A DNA stretch of 64,000 nt from a virus. Lineage: Duplodnaviria > Heunggongvirae > Uroviricota > Caudoviricetes. Under the pieces are notes generated by a model. That model saw only the letters and a program-made list of their open reading frames with translations, made no database searches and was not told the origin of the DNA. Each line of letters opens with the position of its first letter. Position 1 is the stretch's first letter. Of the stretch, positions 3,125-29,092 are shown in pieces. The stretch spans positions 1 through 64,000 of IMG/VR virus record IMGVR_UViG_2667528037_000002. One strand, given 5' to 3'. The position numbers were made by a program, and so were the translations under genes.

Positions 3125-3739
3125 ATGATTGAGAACACCTCGCAACGCCACCCCATCGAGCACCTAGCTGGCTGCCTGGACGGCAACACCTCCAACTACA
3201 TCGAGGGCATGGAGCGGTCCGGGCAACAGCAGCTCCTCACGTCCGACCTCCTCCCTGCCAACGCCGGGCGGGTGTGGTCAGGCGAGGGCGACGAAATGCT
3301 CAGCATCAATGGTTGGGATGTTCTGGAACAGTGGGGATTCCAACGCGGAGAAATCGTTGAGGGCGACCCGCTGTTCGTCCGCGCCACCCTCCCGGAAGGG
3401 TGGTCACGCAAGGGCAGTGAACACGCCATGCACTCAACCATCGTCGACGACCGCGGCGTAGAACGCGTCAGCGTCTTCTACAAGGCCGCCTTCTACGACC
3501 GCCGCGCCAGCATGTCCGTGATCACCGACCCCGGAGGCAATCTCGGAAGCACCGCGATCTATGGCGACGCCGCCGTGGCCCTGCCGGAGGAATGGGCGGT
3601 GCTCACCGCCGAAGAGCGCGACGGATTCCGAGGCGCGCTCGATAGCTATCTGCGTCGAGCCGACGAGTATCCAGACATCTACAAGGACCGAGTGCCCCGC
3701 GTGCGTAGCCTCCTGGCGCTGGTGGAGGCCGCAGCATGA
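3125..3739 (+). CDS. Hypothetical protein
   Basis: Met 43 of ORF 2999..3739 (MIENTSQ). Upstream part of the ORF is P/R-rich and overlaps a small RBS-preceded ORF. Confidence 0.5.
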   Translation: MIENTSQRHPIEHLAGCLDGNTSNYIEGMERSGQQQLLTSDLLPANAGRVWSGEGDEMLSINGWDVLEQWGFQRGEIVEGDPLFVRATLPEGWSRKGSEHAMHSTIVDDRGVERVSVFYKAAFYDRRASMSVITDPGGNLGSTAIYGDAAVALPEEWAVLTAEERDGFRGALDSYLRRADEYPDIYKDRVPRVRSLLALVEAAA

Positions 3740-25546: not shown

Positions 25547-25573
25547 GACTCAGAATGTATAGCGCACTATACG
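25544..25573. promoter_or_regulatory. 30-bp repeat copy 1 (CATGACTCAGAATGTATAGCGCACTATACG): palindrome GTATAG-N4-CTATAC plus -10-like TATAC. Leaderless-type promoter/operator for minus-strand island.
   Basis: Inverted copy at 29063..29092. Start codon of gene 25295..25546(-) is inside the repeat. Confidence 0.5.
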
Positions 25574-25601: not shown

Positions 25602-25633
25602 TGTGTATAGCTCTGTATACGTTCCGAGTCATG
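25602..25633 (+). promoter_or_regulatory. Third related promoter copy (TGTATAGctcTGTATACgtTCCGAgTCATG) driving secreted-protein gene
   Basis: Shares TATAC-N2-TCYGA-N-TCATG leader with the two 30-bp repeats. Confidence 0.4.
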
Positions 25634-25969
25634 AAAAGCCTTTATGTAAAACGTATTGCCGTCATCGGTGCCGCCATCGCGGCCCTAACGGTGCTCCCAA
25701 CTGCGACCGCCTCCGCGTTTCCCGACCGTTGCCTGTATGCCGCGACAGACGCCAAGACCTGCCTGGGCGCCCGACCGGCGCCCTTCACGCCAGCCGGTGG
25801 CGGCGGATACAAACCACCGGAGGACCCGGAATGCCCTGAGGGCCAGCACCGTCCATCTACAGCTCCGGCAGGTCCTCGCGCGGGCGAAACTGGAGGTAAC
25901 AGCGCTGGTAGCGGGTCTGCTAGTAGCGGTGGTTCCTCGGCGAGCGGAGGAGCTGGCGCCGGACGGTGA
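25631..25969 (+). CDS. Secreted protein with signal peptide, Gly/Ser-rich C-terminus
   Basis: Met 112 of ORF 25298..25969. MKSLYVKRIAVIGAAIAALTVLPTATASA|FP. Confidence 0.55.
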   Translation: MKSLYVKRIAVIGAAIAALTVLPTATASAFPDRCLYAATDAKTCLGARPAPFTPAGGGGYKPPEDPECPEGQHRPSTAPAGPRAGETGGNSAGSGSASSGGSSASGGAGAGR

Positions 25970-26016
25970 TGGTCGCGGCTACCGAGCGGCTATACAGCCA
26001 AGCCTCAATCCTGTTG

Positions 26017-26034
26017 CAGCACCGCTATACCGCG
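26017..26034. promoter_or_regulatory. Perfect 18-bp palindrome GCTATACCGCGGTATAGC upstream of ncRNA array
   Basis: Read directly. Arms related to the GTATAG/CTATAC operator motif. Confidence 0.4.
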
Positions 26035-26065
26035 GTATAGCTTCGTTTTCAGACAACAAAACAAC

Positions 26066-26189
26066 GGACGACGTGAACAGAATGCAGGTCGGTTATCTCG
26101 GGGTACGCCCCCGTAGTTCAAGTTAGAACGCCCCGAGCCAAGCGGGGAAATGGAGCCAAACCCGCCCAGCGCCAACCACGTTCACGTCA
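26066..26189 (+). ncRNA. Y-RNA-like unit 0 (variant): closing stem GACGTGAAC/GTTCACGTC, internal D-arm-like and CCCCG/CGGGG hairpins
   Basis: 9-bp perfect terminal pairing. Starts with shared motif GTGAACAG..GCAGGTCGGTTATC. Confidence 0.35.
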
Positions 26190-26220
26190 CCCCCAGGCCA
26201 CAACTACATAGACACCAGAT

Positions 26221-26359
26221 GGTGCGAGCAGGACGCAGGTCGGTTACCACTTGTAATGGAGAGGTCGCGGGTTCGAGTCCCGCCAGCCAGCCCCCGGCTG
26301 TAGCTCAGTTGGCAGAGCGCTAAACCCCGGTCAGCACACACACGTTCGCCCCATCACCC
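26221..26359 (+). ncRNA. Y-RNA-like (YrlA-type) unit 1 with permuted tRNA-like module: T-arm GCGGGTTCGAGTCCCGC, closed acceptor-like hairpin CAGCC-agccccc-GGCTG, D-arm TAGCTCAGTTGGCAGAGCG
   Basis: Canonical T-loop and D-loop sequences in T-then-D order with hairpin-closed acceptor stem. No anticodon arm. Flanked by conserved 5' and 3' motifs. Confidence 0.5.
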
Positions 26360-26381
26360 AACACAACTCCATGCACAGCAC

Positions 26382-26507
26382 GGTGTGAACAGGACTTCGT
26401 TCGGTTATCTCCTTTCCTGAGAGAGACGCGGGTTCGAATCCCGCCAGCCATGAAAGTGGTTGTAGCTCAGCGGCCTAGAGCGCTAAACCCGGACGAAACC
26501 CACACGC
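26382..26507 (+). ncRNA. Y-RNA-like unit 2: T-arm GCGGGTTCGAATCCCGC, hairpin CAGCC-atgaaagt-GGTTG, D-arm TAGCTCAGCGGCCTAGAGCG. Ends GGTGTGA/TCACACC pair.
   Basis: As unit 1. Exact 7-bp terminal pairing. Confidence 0.5.
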
Positions 26508-26547
26508 TCACACCACCTCAAACACCAGCAGACGCATGCGTGCAGGC

Positions 26548-26687
26548 GGTGTGGACAGGACGCAGGTCGGTTACCAAAACAGTCAGGTGTGGGTTCGAGC
26601 CCCACCACCTCGCCCGCGGGGTGTAGCCCAATTGGTAGAGGCAATTGTCCACATAGGCCGGTCAGCACCCCACACGCCCACACCACC
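26548..26687 (+). ncRNA. Y-RNA-like unit 3: T-arm GTGGGTTCGAGCCCCAC, short hairpin, D-arm GTGTAGCCCAATTGGTAGAGGC
   Basis: As unit 1. Terminal GGTGTGGA/CCACACC pairing. Confidence 0.45.
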
Positions 26688-26712
26688 TACGCGCACGCAC
26701 GACAGACAACCC

Positions 26713-26832
26713 GATGTGAACAGGAAGCTCGGTCGGTTATCACTCAATTGGTTAATGCAGGTTCAATCCCTGTCGCCTGCACTTAGTGCGGGTGTAAAAG
26801 CGAAATCCCGGTCAGCACACACACGTTCACAT
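26713..26832 (+). ncRNA. Y-RNA-like unit 4 (divergent): closing stem GATGTGAAC/GTTCACATC, T-arm GCAGGTTCAATCCCTGT, hairpin CCTGCAC-tta-GTGCGGG
   Basis: 9-bp perfect terminal pairing. T-loop TTCAATC. Confidence 0.45.
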
Positions 26833-26853
26833 CACCCGCCCAATAGCCCTCGC

Positions 26854-26935
26854 GGGTGGCACGAGCAGGATCGCAGTCGGTTACCCCACCCCTCGCAAGG
26901 ATGACGAACCCCGGCAGCCCTTCACACGTTCGCGC
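26854..26935 (+). ncRNA. Degenerate/partial Y-RNA-like unit 5 (5' motif present, no T-arm) abutting rsr RBS
   Basis: Shared 5' motif GGTGGCACGAGCAGGATCGCAGTCGGTTACC. Confidence 0.2.
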
Positions 26936-26965
26936 CGCCCGCACCCTCTAACAAGGAGATGCACG

Positions 26966-28681
26966 GTGGACGTTCTCACCACTATCGGAACCCGTAAGAC
27001 GCCGCAGTCGCAGCAGGCGGACCCCCGGCAGGTGAAGAACTCCGCCGGTGGCTACACCTTCACCATCGACGACGAGGCCCTGCTGCACCGCTTCCTCACC
27101 CTCGGCACCGACGGCGGCACCTACTACACCACCGCCCCCGACCTCACCAAGGAAACAGCGGCCGTCGTGCTCCGCGCAGCAGCGGCCGACCCAGTCCGCC
27201 TCGTCCAGCACATCGTCGAGGTGTCTGTGGCCGGACGCGCACCCCGGCAGAACCCGGCCCTGTTCGCCCTCGCCATCGCCGCCGCAGCAGAGGACGTCGA
27301 CGGCCGCCGCGCCGCCGCAGCAGCCCTGCCCACGGTCGCCCGCACCGGCACCCAGCTCTACACGTTCGTGAAGTACATGGAGCAGTTCCGCGGGTGGGGC
27401 CGCGCCATGCAGCGCGCCGTCGGCGGCTGGTACCTCGACAAGCCCGTCGACCGCCTCGCCTACCAGCTGGTCAAGTACCGGCAGCGCGAAGGCTGGATGC
27501 ACCGGGACCTACTACGCCTGTCCGGCCCCACCACGGCGGACCCGGCCCGCCGCCTCGCCTTCAACTGGGCAGTCGGCAAGGGCCTGAACGACTACATCGG
27601 TAAGGTCCAGCCCCTCACTGCCGAGCAGTTGAAGGCGGGGGAGCGCAACGCCTCCCGGCCCAAGCTGCCTAACGTCGAGCTTGTGGTTGACCACCCCCTG
27701 GCGATCATCGAGGACTTCGAGGATGCCCAGCGCGCCACCCAGCCCAAGGAATGGGTGAGCATCATTCGACGTGGCAACGGCCTTCCCTGGGAAGCGTTGC
27801 CAGACGTCGCGCTCAACTTCACCGCTGTGTGGGAAGCGCTGATTGAGCACGGTCTGCCGCAGACCGCATTGATGCGCCAACTGCCTCGCCTGACCCGGCA
27901 TGGGGTCCTCCATGGTGAATATCTGGATCGCGTGGTTGCTCAGCTCCAGGACGCCGACCGTCTACGCAAGGGACGCGTACACCCGGTCAACGTTCTGATC
28001 GCACAGCGCACCTACGCGTCCGGGCGTTCGGCGCGCGGCGACTCCACCTGGACGCCGGAACGCAAGGTCGTGGACGCTCTGGACGCCGCGTTCTACAACG
28101 CCTACGGCGCGGTAGAGCCGTCGGGCAAGCGCACCCTGCTGGCGCTGGACGTGTCCGGCTCCATGGGCGCCGCGATCTCGGGTATGCCGCTGACATGCCG
28201 CGAGGCCGCAGCCGCACTCGCACTCGTCACCACCAACGTTGAGCCCGACCACGAGGTCGTCGGCTTCACCGACGGACGACAGGCCGCGCGCTCGGGCTAC
28301 GGCTACCGGTCCCAGCACCACATCACCCCGCTGGACATCACACCGCGCCGCCGCCTCGACGACGTGTGCCGGTACACCGCCGGACTCAGCTTCGGCGCCA
28401 CCGACTGCGCACTCCCGATGCTGTGGGCACAACAGTCCAAGCGCGAGTTCGACACGTTCGTGGTCATCACCGACAACGAAACCTGGTTCGGCGACGTCCA
28501 CCCACACCAGGCGCTCCGCGACTACCGCAACAAGACGGGCATCAACGCCCGCCTGATCGTTGTCGGCATGACGGCAACCCGCTTCACCATCGCCGACCCC
28601 GACGACCCCGGCCAGCTCGACGTGTCCGGTTTCGACTCGGCTGTCCCGCAGCTGATCTCGGACTTCTCGGCCGGACTGTAG
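26966..28681 (+). CDS. rsr: Ro60/Rsr ortholog (TROVE domain + C-terminal vWA/MIDAS)
   Basis: Long colinear similarity to Ro60 C-terminal half (HRDLLRLS, LDAAFYNAYGAVEPSGKRTLLALDVSGSM, FGATDCALPMLWAQ, VVITDNETWFGDVHP, RLIVVGMTATRFTIADPDDPGQLDVSGFD). GTG start with RBS aaggag. Confidence 0.92.
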   Translation: MDVLTTIGTRKTPQSQQADPRQVKNSAGGYTFTIDDEALLHRFLTLGTDGGTYYTTAPDLTKETAAVVLRAAAADPVRLVQHIVEVSVAGRAPRQNPALFALAIAAAAEDVDGRRAAAAALPTVARTGTQLYTFVKYMEQFRGWGRAMQRAVGGWYLDKPVDRLAYQLVKYRQREGWMHRDLLRLSGPTTADPARRLAFNWAVGKGLNDYIGKVQPLTAEQLKAGERNASRPKLPNVELVVDHPLAIIEDFEDAQRATQPKEWVSIIRRGNGLPWEALPDVALNFTAVWEALIEHGLPQTALMRQLPRLTRHGVLHGEYLDRVVAQLQDADRLRKGRVHPVNVLIAQRTYASGRSARGDSTWTPERKVVDALDAAFYNAYGAVEPSGKRTLLALDVSGSMGAAISGMPLTCREAAAALALVTTNVEPDHEVVGFTDGRQAARSGYGYRSQHHITPLDITPRRRLDDVCRYTAGLSFGATDCALPMLWAQQSKREFDTFVVITDNETWFGDVHPHQALRDYRNKTGINARLIVVGMTATRFTIADPDDPGQLDVSGFDSAVPQLISDFSAGL

Positions 28682-28687
28682 GAACGC

Positions 28688-28918
28688 GTGGACCCAAGGG
28701 CACAGCAGGCGCGGGAGCATCACCGGTTGCAGCGTGATGCCTCCCGCGTCGGCGAACAACACCGGTACGAACGAGACCGGCTAGTTCGTGAACTGTGGAC
28801 CACCGAACGAGAGAAGTGGACCTACGCCACGTTGGCCGCGGCGGTGACGTGCAGCCCGGGACTGATCCAGAAGATTCTCGACGGCCGCACCCCAACAGCC
28901 CAGCACGTCACCAGGTAA
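28688..28918 (+). CDS. Small HTH protein downstream of rsr
   Basis: ORF track. C-terminal HTH-like YATLAAAVTCSPGLIQKILDG. Confidence 0.4.
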   Translation: MDPRAQQAREHHRLQRDASRVGEQHRYERDRLVRELWTTEREKWTYATLAAAVTCSPGLIQKILDGRTPTAQHVTR

Positions 28919-29062
28919 AGGAAGGCAGACGCCGCAATGGATTTCAACACCCCACTCCAAAGCCTGAACGGCTGGCCCGCCGCGGTCGTCCTTGCCGTCG
29001 TGGTCCTCTGCGTGACGGCCGTGATCATCGCGGTTATCCGCGCCGACTAACGCTCGACGCGA

Positions 29063-29092
29063 CGTATAGCGCACTATACAGTCTGAATCATG
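29063..29092. promoter_or_regulatory. 30-bp repeat copy 2 (CGTATAGCGCACTATACAGTCTGAATCATG), inverted relative to copy 1. Start codon of gene 29090 inside.
   Basis: Identity with copy 1 in reverse orientation in ~26/30 positions. Palindrome GTATAGCGCACTATAC at 29064..29079. Confidence 0.5.

Follow-up and report, generated by a model that had tools for sequence, protein, structure and literature searches.

The 64,000-nucleotide (nt) stretch of viral DNA analysed here (IMG/VR record IMGVR_UViG_2667528037_000002, positions 1 to 64,000; henceforth the window) very probably carries the rsr operon of a MabK prophage of Mycobacterium abscessus, in which six different Y RNA genes stand head to tail before the gene of the Ro60 ortholog Rsr, and which works along the lines proposed below. 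Its region 26000–28700 showed 96% identity to prophage prophiGD43A-5 (MW584167; from M. abscessus GD43A) and 95% to prophiT37-1, and prophiGD43A-5 is assigned to prophage cluster MabK in the report describing it (PMC8092301); by sequence comparison, the window is a MabK-cluster prophage of M. abscessus. In GenBank, the rsr open reading frame (ORF) of both relatives is labelled ‘Ro-like RNA binding protein’, and the 900 bp 5′ of it are blank apart from a ‘tRNA-Thr’ in prophiGD43A-5. Among GenBank phage records the array was found only in these two prophages, with the Y RNAs unannotated in both.

The units, termed U1 to U6, and the associated features are listed below together with the scores obtained with R2, a covariance model built from 22 YrlA-type units (U1, U5, U6 and the Mycobacterium smegmatis RNAs being outside its training set), with the Rfam YrlA model and with a mini-stem model, R1.

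26014–26041, plus strand: candidate promoter with an operator-like palindrome, read from the sequence and from its conservation across loci
26070–26191, plus strand: Y RNA U1, without a T arm (R2 match at 26070–26193, 38.6 bits, E = 1e-6)
26219–26358, plus strand: Y RNA U2, a canonical actinobacterial YrlA (R2, 137.6 bits; Rfam YrlA, 37.6 bits)
26382–26519, plus strand: Y RNA U3, YrlA-type (R2, 128.2 bits; Rfam YrlA, 28.8 bits)
26548–26689, plus strand: Y RNA U4, YrlA-type (R2, 97.8 bits; full-length Rfam YrlA alignment, 26.7 bits)
26713–26838, plus strand: Y RNA U5, with a T arm and no D arm (R2, 77.3 bits, E = 3e-16)
26858–26941, plus strand: Y RNA U6, short and YrlB-like (R2, 39.7 bits, E = 6e-7; R1, 30.4 bits)
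26953–26958, plus strand: Shine-Dalgarno sequence AAGGAG, read from the sequence, 7 nt 5′ of the rsr GTG
26966–28681, plus strand: rsr, encoding a Ro60 ortholog of 571 residues, with a GTG start (Pfam and PDB sequence matches)

The array occupies 26070–26941, that is, 24–896 nt 5′ of rsr and on its strand, which lies within the limits used for YrlA RNAs (<4 kb, same strand), and the unit starts, with that of U2 counted from 26221, are 145–166 nt apart. The nonamer TCGGTTAYC was found six times in the 64 kb, for which chance would give 0.49 matches, each time on the plus strand between 26089 and 26885. Each copy is part of a 28-nt 5′ strand with the consensus GGUGUGAGCAGGACGCAGGUCGGUUAYC, and 24–81 nt after each of these follows a 3′ strand with the consensus CCCGGUCAGCACACACACGYYCRCAYCACC. 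Tandem units with a shared opening strand and a complementary closing strand had been described in an earlier note on this DNA, and all six units were indeed found to possess a covarying closing stem. The same note had placed a T arm and a D arm in each unit, which proved wrong for U1 (a D-like hairpin only), U5 (no D arm) and U6 (neither): the T-arm motif GGTTCRANNCC is present in four units (U2–U5) and a canonical D arm in three (U2–U4). Of the six YrlA-type tRNA mimics that it had envisaged, U2–U4 stand as full mimics, U1 and U5 are partial and U6 is YrlB-like.

U2, U3 and U4 are full YrlA-type tRNA mimics with the circularly permuted order of T arm, closed acceptor-like stem and D arm; their T loops read UUCGAGU, UUCGAAU and UUCGAGC, and their D loops contain GG. 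The tRNA-like fold of YrlA has been solved (PDB 6CU1; bioRxiv 10.1101/312249). In U2, the closing stem is followed by a V hairpin (CCA-CUUGUAA-UGG), the T arm GCGGGUUCGAGUCCCGC, a closed acceptor-like stem of 7 bp including one A-C mismatch, UA and the D arm GCUCAGUUGGCAGAGC, and the V region differs at three positions from the published M. smegmatis YrlA probe target. U3 contains a V hairpin (UCUC...GAGA) and a T arm; GAAA closes its 7-bp acceptor-like stem, and its D arm reads GCUCAGCGGCCUAGAGC. Its second helix, UUCGUUCGG/CCGGACGAA, is wholly paired via compensatory changes, and compensatory differences were also seen between U3 and the orthologous unit of L026 (related loci are cited by such L numbers). 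U4 has the T arm GUGGGUUCGAGCCCCAC, a 7-bp acceptor-like stem (CACCUCG/CGGGGUG) closed by CCCG, the variant D arm GCCCAAUUGGUAGAGGC and a 3′ extension, and among the loci compared it is confined to the close relatives of the window. In the U4 module, UGUCCACA perfectly complements UGUGGACA of the U4 5′ terminal strand, with ~0.1 such matches expected by chance; this is a candidate for an alternative pairing to the closing stem, in a unit of too narrow a distribution for covariation.

The remaining three units belong to the Y RNAs without strictly qualifying as YrlA. U1 pairs GACGUGAAC with GUUCACGUC in its closing stem and has GC-A-GGUCGG/CCGCCC-A-GC as second helix; its module is made up of three hairpins, namely one with a UACG tetraloop, a D-arm-like hairpin GUAGUUCAAGUUAGAAC without the GG dinucleotide (its D-like motif GTAGTTCAAGTTAGAAC lying at 26113) and a 5-bp stem with a 7-nt loop; like U4, it was met only in close relatives. 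In U5 the closing stem is followed by the T arm GCAGGUUCAAUCCCUGU and a 9-bp hairpin at the acceptor position, while an A-rich single strand, UAAAAGCGAAAU, replaces the D arm. U6 consists of the closing stem, the second helix and a 24-nt pyrimidine-rich module with a small hairpin, has no tRNA-like parts, and ends 24 nt before the rsr start codon, in the same place as M. smegmatis YrlB. It answers to the description of the YrlB type, a class for which no curated model exists and whose definition is consequently loose.

The ORF at 26966–28681 is a complete Ro60/Rsr, in agreement with the earlier note, which had identified it as such from its TROVE and vWA/MIDAS parts. Pfam detected the TROVE (HEAT-repeat ring) domain PF05731 (E = 3.5e-46, residues 23–347) and the Ro60-type vWA domain PF25045 (vWA_Ro60; E = 1.8e-63, residues 389–567). 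The protein aligned end to end with Deinococcus radiodurans Rsr (2NVO, 2e-103), human RO60 (2e-100) and Xenopus Ro60 (1e-99), and its alignment to the Ro60/Rsr chains 2NVO, 9NEN and 1YVP was full-length. The MIDAS residues DVSGSM, TDC and TDNET match the equivalent residues of Rsr and human RO60, and the MIDAS columns were invariant in a 12-sequence alignment. Among 8000 candidates scored, 7400 were homologues at E ≤ 1e-20. The closest relatives were M. abscessus prophage proteins (74–98% identity), next to which came chromosomal Mycolicibacterium Rsr (M. smegmatis included, 65%) and that of phage Sparky (64%).

For the examination of the stem, an alignment was made of both strands of 45 distinct units, which came from the window and 14 related loci, with the modules replaced by GAAA; the strands were picked by local alignment to the strand consensus and not by pairing. 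In the shared closing stem, a conserved internal loop separates a 9-bp terminal helix from a second helix of nine positions (GC-R-GGUCGG/CCGGUC-R-GC, the mismatch being mostly purine-purine) that contains GGUCGGUUAYC. Paired bases occupied 89.9% of the stem cells, as against 25–41% when the 3′ partners were slid by one to three columns, and three of the terminal pairs changed freely between two Watson-Crick states (2/62, GC 21 and AU 20; 3/61, UA 29 and CG 13; 5/59, UA 27 and CG 15). The observed covariation score was reached by none of 500 shuffles, and unguided RNAalifold predicted the same stem helices. In the full YrlA structure (22 units; stem, T arm, 7-bp acceptor-like stem and D arm), 92% of the cells were paired versus 33–45% after sliding, with double changes in 20 of 34 pairs and covariation at all seven acceptor-like pairs. 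The common stem architecture of all six RNAs is kept by compensatory mutations. Furthermore, the second helix contains a near-invariant U-G pair and frequent G-U pairs, none of which would pair if the other strand were the RNA; the RNA strand is therefore that of rsr.

R2 found all six units (E = 1e-6 to 5e-31) and had no other match on either strand of the 64 kb. R2 had taken the place of R1, a model made of the 5′ strand, GAAA and the 3′ strand, which was dropped as it detected only the short U6; the longer units were missed because their modules exceed the R1 model's window. Over 489 kb and 434 kb of related loci, R2 gave 155 and 172 matches, respectively (327 in all), every one on the rsr strand and mostly less than ~1.5 kb 5′ of rsr. 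In M. smegmatis exactly two matches were obtained 5′ of rsr, with 128.6 and 53.2 bits, and these contain without mismatch the targets of the YrlA and YrlB Northern probes (Chen et al., 2014). M. smegmatis YrlA and YrlB are made as one precursor 5′ of rsr, which is processed to discrete Rsr-bound RNAs (PMC4201824). As R2 recovers these validated RNAs, the units of the window are tied to RNAs bound by Rsr, and by this sequence evidence they are homologous to YrlA and YrlB of M. smegmatis.

Comparison with other loci also bears on the age of the array. Within the window the paralogs are 37–75% identical to each other, while U2 is 89% identical to unit 2 of L038 and 84% identical to units of L032 and L040, U5 is 90% identical to unit 4 of L032, and U6 is 80% and 76% identical to the last units of L032 and L038, respectively. 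The rsr gene of L032 is only 76% identical at the nucleotide level. Because identities of 80–90% are found where rsr has ~76%, at least U2, U5 and U6 are old, individually constrained genes and not the product of recent amplification. Three close relatives with 98–99% identical Rsr (L026, L027 and L031) possess a seventh unit between U2 and U3, at 3245–3391, whose module carries GCAUUCGGAGCGGGAGGUC ahead of T, acceptor-like and D elements; units of this type were also seen in L032, L034, L038 and L040. To judge from the sequence, the window spacer 26359–26381 looks like a deletion between conserved spacer repeats, ACACAACTCCAT. The window spacers 26192–26218 and 26359–26381 and the spacers of L026, L032, L038 and L040 have in common a short motif (ACAACTCCAT, ACAACTACAT or ACAACTTCAT), which could be a processing site or a leftover of ancestral duplication. 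A further unit type, absent from the window, was seen in L032 (3236–3405), L034 (3239–3405), L040 (3662–3805), L041 (3758–3898) and L042 (3761–3895); it is composed of a T arm, a long hairpin, GUGGCAGAGCGGCCGAAUGC and another hairpin, and its D-like part presumably resembles the long D arm of class II tRNAs.

One alternative reading takes the array for a decayed phage tRNA cluster, i.e. pseudogenes, or for a DNA-level repeat such as protein-binding iterons. ARAGORN called a tRNA-Thr(UGU) at 26215–26293, a call which GenBank carries as gene 51 of prophiGD43A-5 and which explains the ‘1 tRNA’ listed in the 2021 paper, and the Rfam tRNA model matched 26294–26452 with 33.7 bits (gathering score, 29). 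The former, however, corresponds to the 5′ strand and V hairpin of U2, with the V hairpin taken as an anticodon loop, and the latter was rejected as an artefact in which the acceptor-like strand and D arm of U2 are joined to the T arm of U3 over a 100-nt insertion. A canonical tRNA gene was likewise rejected; as the order is T arm, closed acceptor-like stem and D arm, no acceptor-D-anticodon-T-acceptor cloverleaf exists. Compensatory changes that keep RNA helices on one strand only, units that are better conserved than the adjoining coding gene, and homology to validated Rsr-bound RNAs all speak against this reading, which is disfavoured and which we regard as extremely improbable. In U2-type units elsewhere, the V hairpin has a 7-nt loop CUNNNAA with a variable middle triplet (CUUCUAA, CUUUUAA, CUGUUAA); this resembles an anticodon-loop signature, of which we met no discussion in the literature on Y RNAs examined.

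Translation of the array region was rejected as well. No conserved ORF was found in the upstream ~900 bp upon comparison across the relatives, and the longest ORF there (122 residues, 26536–26904, across U4–U6) is Arg/Pro-rich and not conserved, being frame-broken in the 98%-identical relative L030 and gone from L032 and L038 (75% identity), which keep the repeats. This bears out the earlier note, according to which no protein-like ORFs lie directly 5′ of rsr.

The number of R2 units per locus was seven in three close relatives, six in the window and seven relatives, five in L032–L034 and L040, four in L038, L041 and L042, and two in phage Sparky, the cluster C1 phage LinStu, M. smegmatis and three Mycobacterium metagenome-assembled genomes (MAGs). 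A wider sample of 61 further viral contigs with Ro60 relatives, from 318 found, gave 0–6 units with a median of ~3, and at least four in roughly 20 loci; six were present on an unrelated 110-kb IMG/VR contig, L070. These counts are lower bounds, as the sensitivity of R2 drops with evolutionary distance. The view of the earlier note that one or two Y RNAs are usual and six exceptional thus fits the published and sampled chromosomal loci (two units in M. smegmatis and in the Mycobacterium MAGs), and not the phage loci, with a median of ~3 and up to seven in the relatives. Five to six matches 5′ of rsr were observed in the unrelated viral contigs L070, L075, L088, L105, L107, L118 and L121, whose Rsr is 46–56% identical to that of the window, and four to five in some MAG loci (uncultured Actinomycetota, Micropruina and Fimbriimonas; among L007, L009 and L010), which may include prophages. 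Phage rsr loci with often three to six units would point to a greater use of Y RNA modularity by phages than by their hosts, although the comparison of phage with chromosomal loci is only suggestive; such a use would bear on how phages rewire host RNA decay.

The module types include full tRNA mimics, which vary in their V hairpins and acceptor-like stems, T-arm-only and D-like-only modules, and short hairpins. That diversified arrays of three to seven units are a general, undescribed trait of phage Ro60 loci, with each module a distinct adaptor, is a speculative and rather doubtful generalization. A set of adaptors is compatible with the findings, since module types are kept across ~75% identical Rsr and units are gained or lost at conserved spacers. 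If it were true, a single Rsr ring could be directed during infection to several partners in host RNA processing or tRNA handling, and in M. abscessus the RNP set of the prophage could change the turnover of host tRNA or rRNA or counteract RNA-targeting defences.

Upstream of U1, a -35-like TTGCAG (26014–26019) and a -10-like TATAGC (26036–26041) are separated by a 16-nt spacer, and the latter lies inside the palindrome GCTATACCGCGGTATAGC (26024–26041), after which there is a TTCGTTTT tail. The core palindrome CTATACCGCGGTATAG (26025–26040) occurs a single time in the window, just before U1. Its general form CTRTAY-N4-RTAYAG was found once per ~9-kb locus, 14–30 nt 5′ of the first unit, in the window family, L036/37, L039, L040, L042 and L046. 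In other phage loci CTGTAC-N4-GTACAG overlaps a good -10 hexamer, TACAGT, 14–15 nt before the first unit, and the palindrome arms co-vary with the hexamer, so that with TATAGC in the window the opposite arm is altered to match. The palindrome looks like an operator-controlled promoter. A scan for consensus sigma-70 promoters gave no site here, and the proposal draws on cross-locus conservation only; read-through from the upstream ORF is a possible alternative source of array transcription.

The terminator scan found no terminator-like site between the array and rsr, nor between rsr and the ORF at 28688. Together with the position of U6, which adjoins the ribosome-binding site, and with the short YrlB-like unit found right before rsr in every related locus, this would fit a cis-acting leader, in which Rsr binds Y-like stems in its own unprocessed 5′ untranslated region and autoregulates its translation or stability, free Y RNAs being by-products. 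The homologous RNAs of M. smegmatis, however, accumulate as discrete Rsr-bound species (PMC4201824), and one site suffices for autoregulation, which leaves six diversified modules and the covarying T, acceptor-like and D arms unexplained. As the sole function of the array a cis leader is in our opinion improbable, and as an added layer it is compatible with an array of separate Rsr-bound RNAs.

For such an array we propose the following course of events, the function of the Rsr/Y RNA locus in the window being inferred by homology only. The array and rsr, possibly with downstream genes, would be transcribed as one precursor, either from the promoter at 26014–26041 or by upstream read-through, which we consider somewhat probable. 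Our judgement is evenly balanced as to whether this precursor would be cut in the spacers and RNase P may also cut the acceptor-like loops of U2–U4, by analogy with M. smegmatis YrlA, which in vivo undergoes RNase P cleavage and then CCA-tailing (PMC4201824); cleavage of YrlA by RNase P goes with a 7-bp acceptor-like stem (Chen et al., 2014). It is quite likely that the outer surface of Rsr would bind each closing stem and stabilize the RNA, giving up to six distinct ribonucleoproteins (RNPs). As adaptors or gates, the variable modules would then link the Rsr ring to host proteins that handle RNA. Precedent for this is a RYPER-like complex with PNPase, a Y RNA module linking Rsr to PNPase being the published model for bacterial Y RNAs (PMC4201824), and by this analogy PNPase specifically is suggested only tentatively. 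The earlier note had likewise proposed a programmable RNP that tethers host PNPase, an idea that is not new. As no PNPase gene was seen in the examined parts of the window or of the prophiGD43A-5 annotation, such a role would need the host enzyme. Partners of the tRNA-like modules could be tRNA-binding enzymes. As a result, structured RNA would undergo altered decay or quality control, most probably in lytic growth.

The tRNA-like parts also invite the explanation that the RNAs are largely Rsr-independent tRNA decoys or sponges, which titrate host factors that bind tRNA, for example RNase P, the CCA-adding enzyme, modification enzymes, or toxins and defence nucleases directed at tRNA, and which Rsr only stabilizes. 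U2–U4 retain tRNA elbow elements (T loops and D loops with GG) as well as acceptor-like stems of 7 bp; TruB and DusA act on YrlA RNAs, and in M. smegmatis RNase P processes YrlA in vivo, with CCA added afterwards (PMC4201824); and a ribonuclease-type toxin-antitoxin cassette lies directly upstream. Yet three of the six units are without a complete tRNA-like domain and nevertheless keep the covarying Rsr-type stem, the modules have neither an anticodon arm nor a free CCA end, the array, without exception, goes together with rsr and shares its strand, and no targeted toxin is evidenced. Decoys of this kind are, in our estimate, quite improbable.

Several observations weigh against our interpretation of the array as six expressed, Rsr-bound Y RNAs. 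The first concerns the Rfam models. In gathering mode there was no match in the window, and with E-value thresholds the Rfam YrlA model RF02553 gave 37.6 bits with U2 (E = 2e-6, over the core of T arm, acceptor-like stem and D arm), 28.8 bits with U3 and 26.7 bits with U4 (E = 0.003), all below its gathering score of 69 bits; the Rfam/Infernal check put forward in the earlier note matched U2–U4 at scores under the threshold. In the control, the experimentally validated M. smegmatis YrlA scored 45.1 bits and was also under 69. As a validated RNA fails too, the Rfam threshold leaves out true actinobacterial members, and the blank in gathering mode was rejected as evidence against Y RNAs. The second concerns the Rsr-contact motif of the window, GUCGGUUA, which departs from the published GNCGAAN0-1G and matches only its GNCG. 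This variant is also that of the validated YrlA and YrlB of M. smegmatis (GAUCGGUUA), and the Rfam alignment puts the motif of the window onto the model's GGCGAAUGC; judged from these sequences, the units seem to carry the actinobacterial form of the contact motif, not the literal published one.

Single-sequence folding is a further point, as the energies of U2, U4 and U6 were no better than those of shuffled sequence (z-scores: U1, -2.35; U2, +0.2; U3, -4.14; U4, -0.3; U5, -2.42; U6, -0.3). Folding of the units, also recommended in the earlier note, gave a divided result, the minimum free energy fold of U3 reproducing the stem, V, T and acceptor-like elements and U2, U4 and U6 behaving like shuffled sequence. 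The thermodynamic z-scores are mixed, do not tell the strands apart and were not used as evidence; with folding energies unremarkable for half of the units, the case is built on covariation and homology, not on stability. As to expression, the -10 hexamer TATAGC does not end in the customary T, and the terminator scan listed the hairpin plus its TTCGTTTT tail as terminator-like, which makes the transcription start uncertain. Moreover, the legend to the RNA-seq of the prophiGD43A-5 lysogen states that the prophage is mostly silent except for the toxin-immunity locus (PMC8092301), and expression in lytic growth rather than in lysogeny is favoured for this reason; small structured RNAs may have been under-sampled in these data.

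The rsr locus sits in a long rightward-transcribed early region, right after a leftward BrnT-like toxin/antitoxin cassette. Pfam searches with ten neighbouring ORFs gave no functionally linked match such as RtcB, PNPase or tRNA enzymes. Between the cassette and the array, an ORF of 112 residues (25631–25969, plus strand) starts like a signal peptide (MKSLYVKRIAVIGAAIAALTVLPTATASA) and ends in a Gly/Ser-rich tail; it had no Pfam match and is unannotated in MW584167, though its DNA is kept there. Downstream of rsr, an ORF of 76 residues (28688–28918, plus strand) begins 7 nt past the stop codon and showed a weak, sub-threshold match to HTH_31 (E = 8e-4), and it is followed by an ORF of 37 residues (28938–29051, plus strand) that contains a hydrophobic stretch; the relatives label both ‘hypothetical’.

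A 16-bp palindrome, GTATAGCGCACTATAC, of which CTATACCGCGGTATAG is an inside-out version, is present in identical form at 25557–25572 and 29064–29079 and as a variant at 25605–25620 (three versus 0.34 expected). Each copy of the GTATAGCGCACTATAC and CTATACCGCGGTATAG palindromes overlaps a -10-like hexamer, e.g. TATAGT on the minus strand before the BrnT-like toxin gene, and TACAGT at 29077–29082 lies 7 nt before an ATG at 29090 and would give a leaderless mRNA. The palindromes bracket a block of ~3.5 kb with the ORF 25631–25969, the Y RNA array, rsr and the two small ORFs, and could be a shared operator set or a module boundary. The helix-turn-helix-like protein of 76 residues is a candidate binder of these nearby palindromes.

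YrlA-like RNAs beside Ro60 have been reported for 254 bacteria and for 22 bacteriophages, one of which is mycobacteriophage ET08 (Chen et al., 2014, RNA 20:1715; PMC4201824). The searchable literature, which does not cover the per-phage supplementary counts of Chen et al., gave no description of this locus of MabK prophages, nor of any array with five to seven Y RNAs. A prophage class of an important pathogen is mis-annotated, with six structured RNA genes missing from GenBank and one called tRNA-Thr. With one promoter region, one Ro60 and six Y RNA modules, the locus offers a test system in a tractable genus with validated YrlA and YrlB, and it could help to answer two questions of the Ro60 field, i.e. 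what the partner of the tRNA-like domain is and why several Y RNAs are kept.

The rsr-yrlBA-rtcBA locus of Salmonella Typhimurium and the Rsr/Yrn1/PNPase complex (RYPER) of D. radiodurans share with the window a Ro60 ring and Y RNAs made of an Rsr-binding stem and an effector module, each species having at least two Y RNAs. In Salmonella, unlike in the window, the Y RNAs are encoded 3′ of rsr, next to RNA repair genes, and are controlled by RtcR/sigma-54, none of which is seen here, and the contact motif in these systems is GNCGAA as compared with GUCGGUUA in the window. The Rfam YrlA model is built on this type of lineage, and actinobacterial RNAs score under its threshold. Closer in kind is the Thermus phage phiLo (phiRo60/Yrl1/Yrl2), in which a phage Ro60 is likewise accompanied by Y-like RNAs encoded upstream; this Ro60 binds the two RNAs and complexes with host PNPase in vitro (NAR 2025; PMC12135203). 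It differs in having two RNAs, a distant protein lineage and a thermophilic host, and binding was assayed there, whereas the window is known from sequence alone.

The cluster C1 mycobacteriophages (ET08, LinStu and the Bxz1 group) also combine a phage Ro60 with an upstream YrlA-type RNA (Pedulla et al., 2003; Chen et al., 2014), with ~72% identity to the window in rsr over 500 nt and ~76% in the T arm–acceptor-like stem–D arm core of U2. Their YrlA region bears ‘hypothetical protein’ calls or nothing in GenBank and is as unannotated as in the relatives of the window. They are large lytic myoviruses of ~155 kb, in contrast to the window, and have two R2 units (LinStu, L003; C1-like, L076 and L080) versus six. 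M. smegmatis is the best-matched chromosomal case, with a 65% identical Rsr, Y RNAs directly 5′ of rsr on the same strand, and a closing stem of the same make (GAUGUGAGCCGGAC..GAUCGGUUAYC ... CCGG..ACACGCCCACAUC); its YrlA is the counterpart of U2 (V hairpin, T arm, 7-bp acceptor-like stem and D arm), and a YrlB-type unit adjoins the gene in both. The M. smegmatis locus is chromosomal and has two units, as opposed to six on a prophage, its YrlB has a T arm whereas U6 has none, and the modules of U1, U3, U4 and U5 have no counterpart in it. The type of locus, its layout and the mechanism proposed are hence already published, and the locus in the window is an unusually large case.

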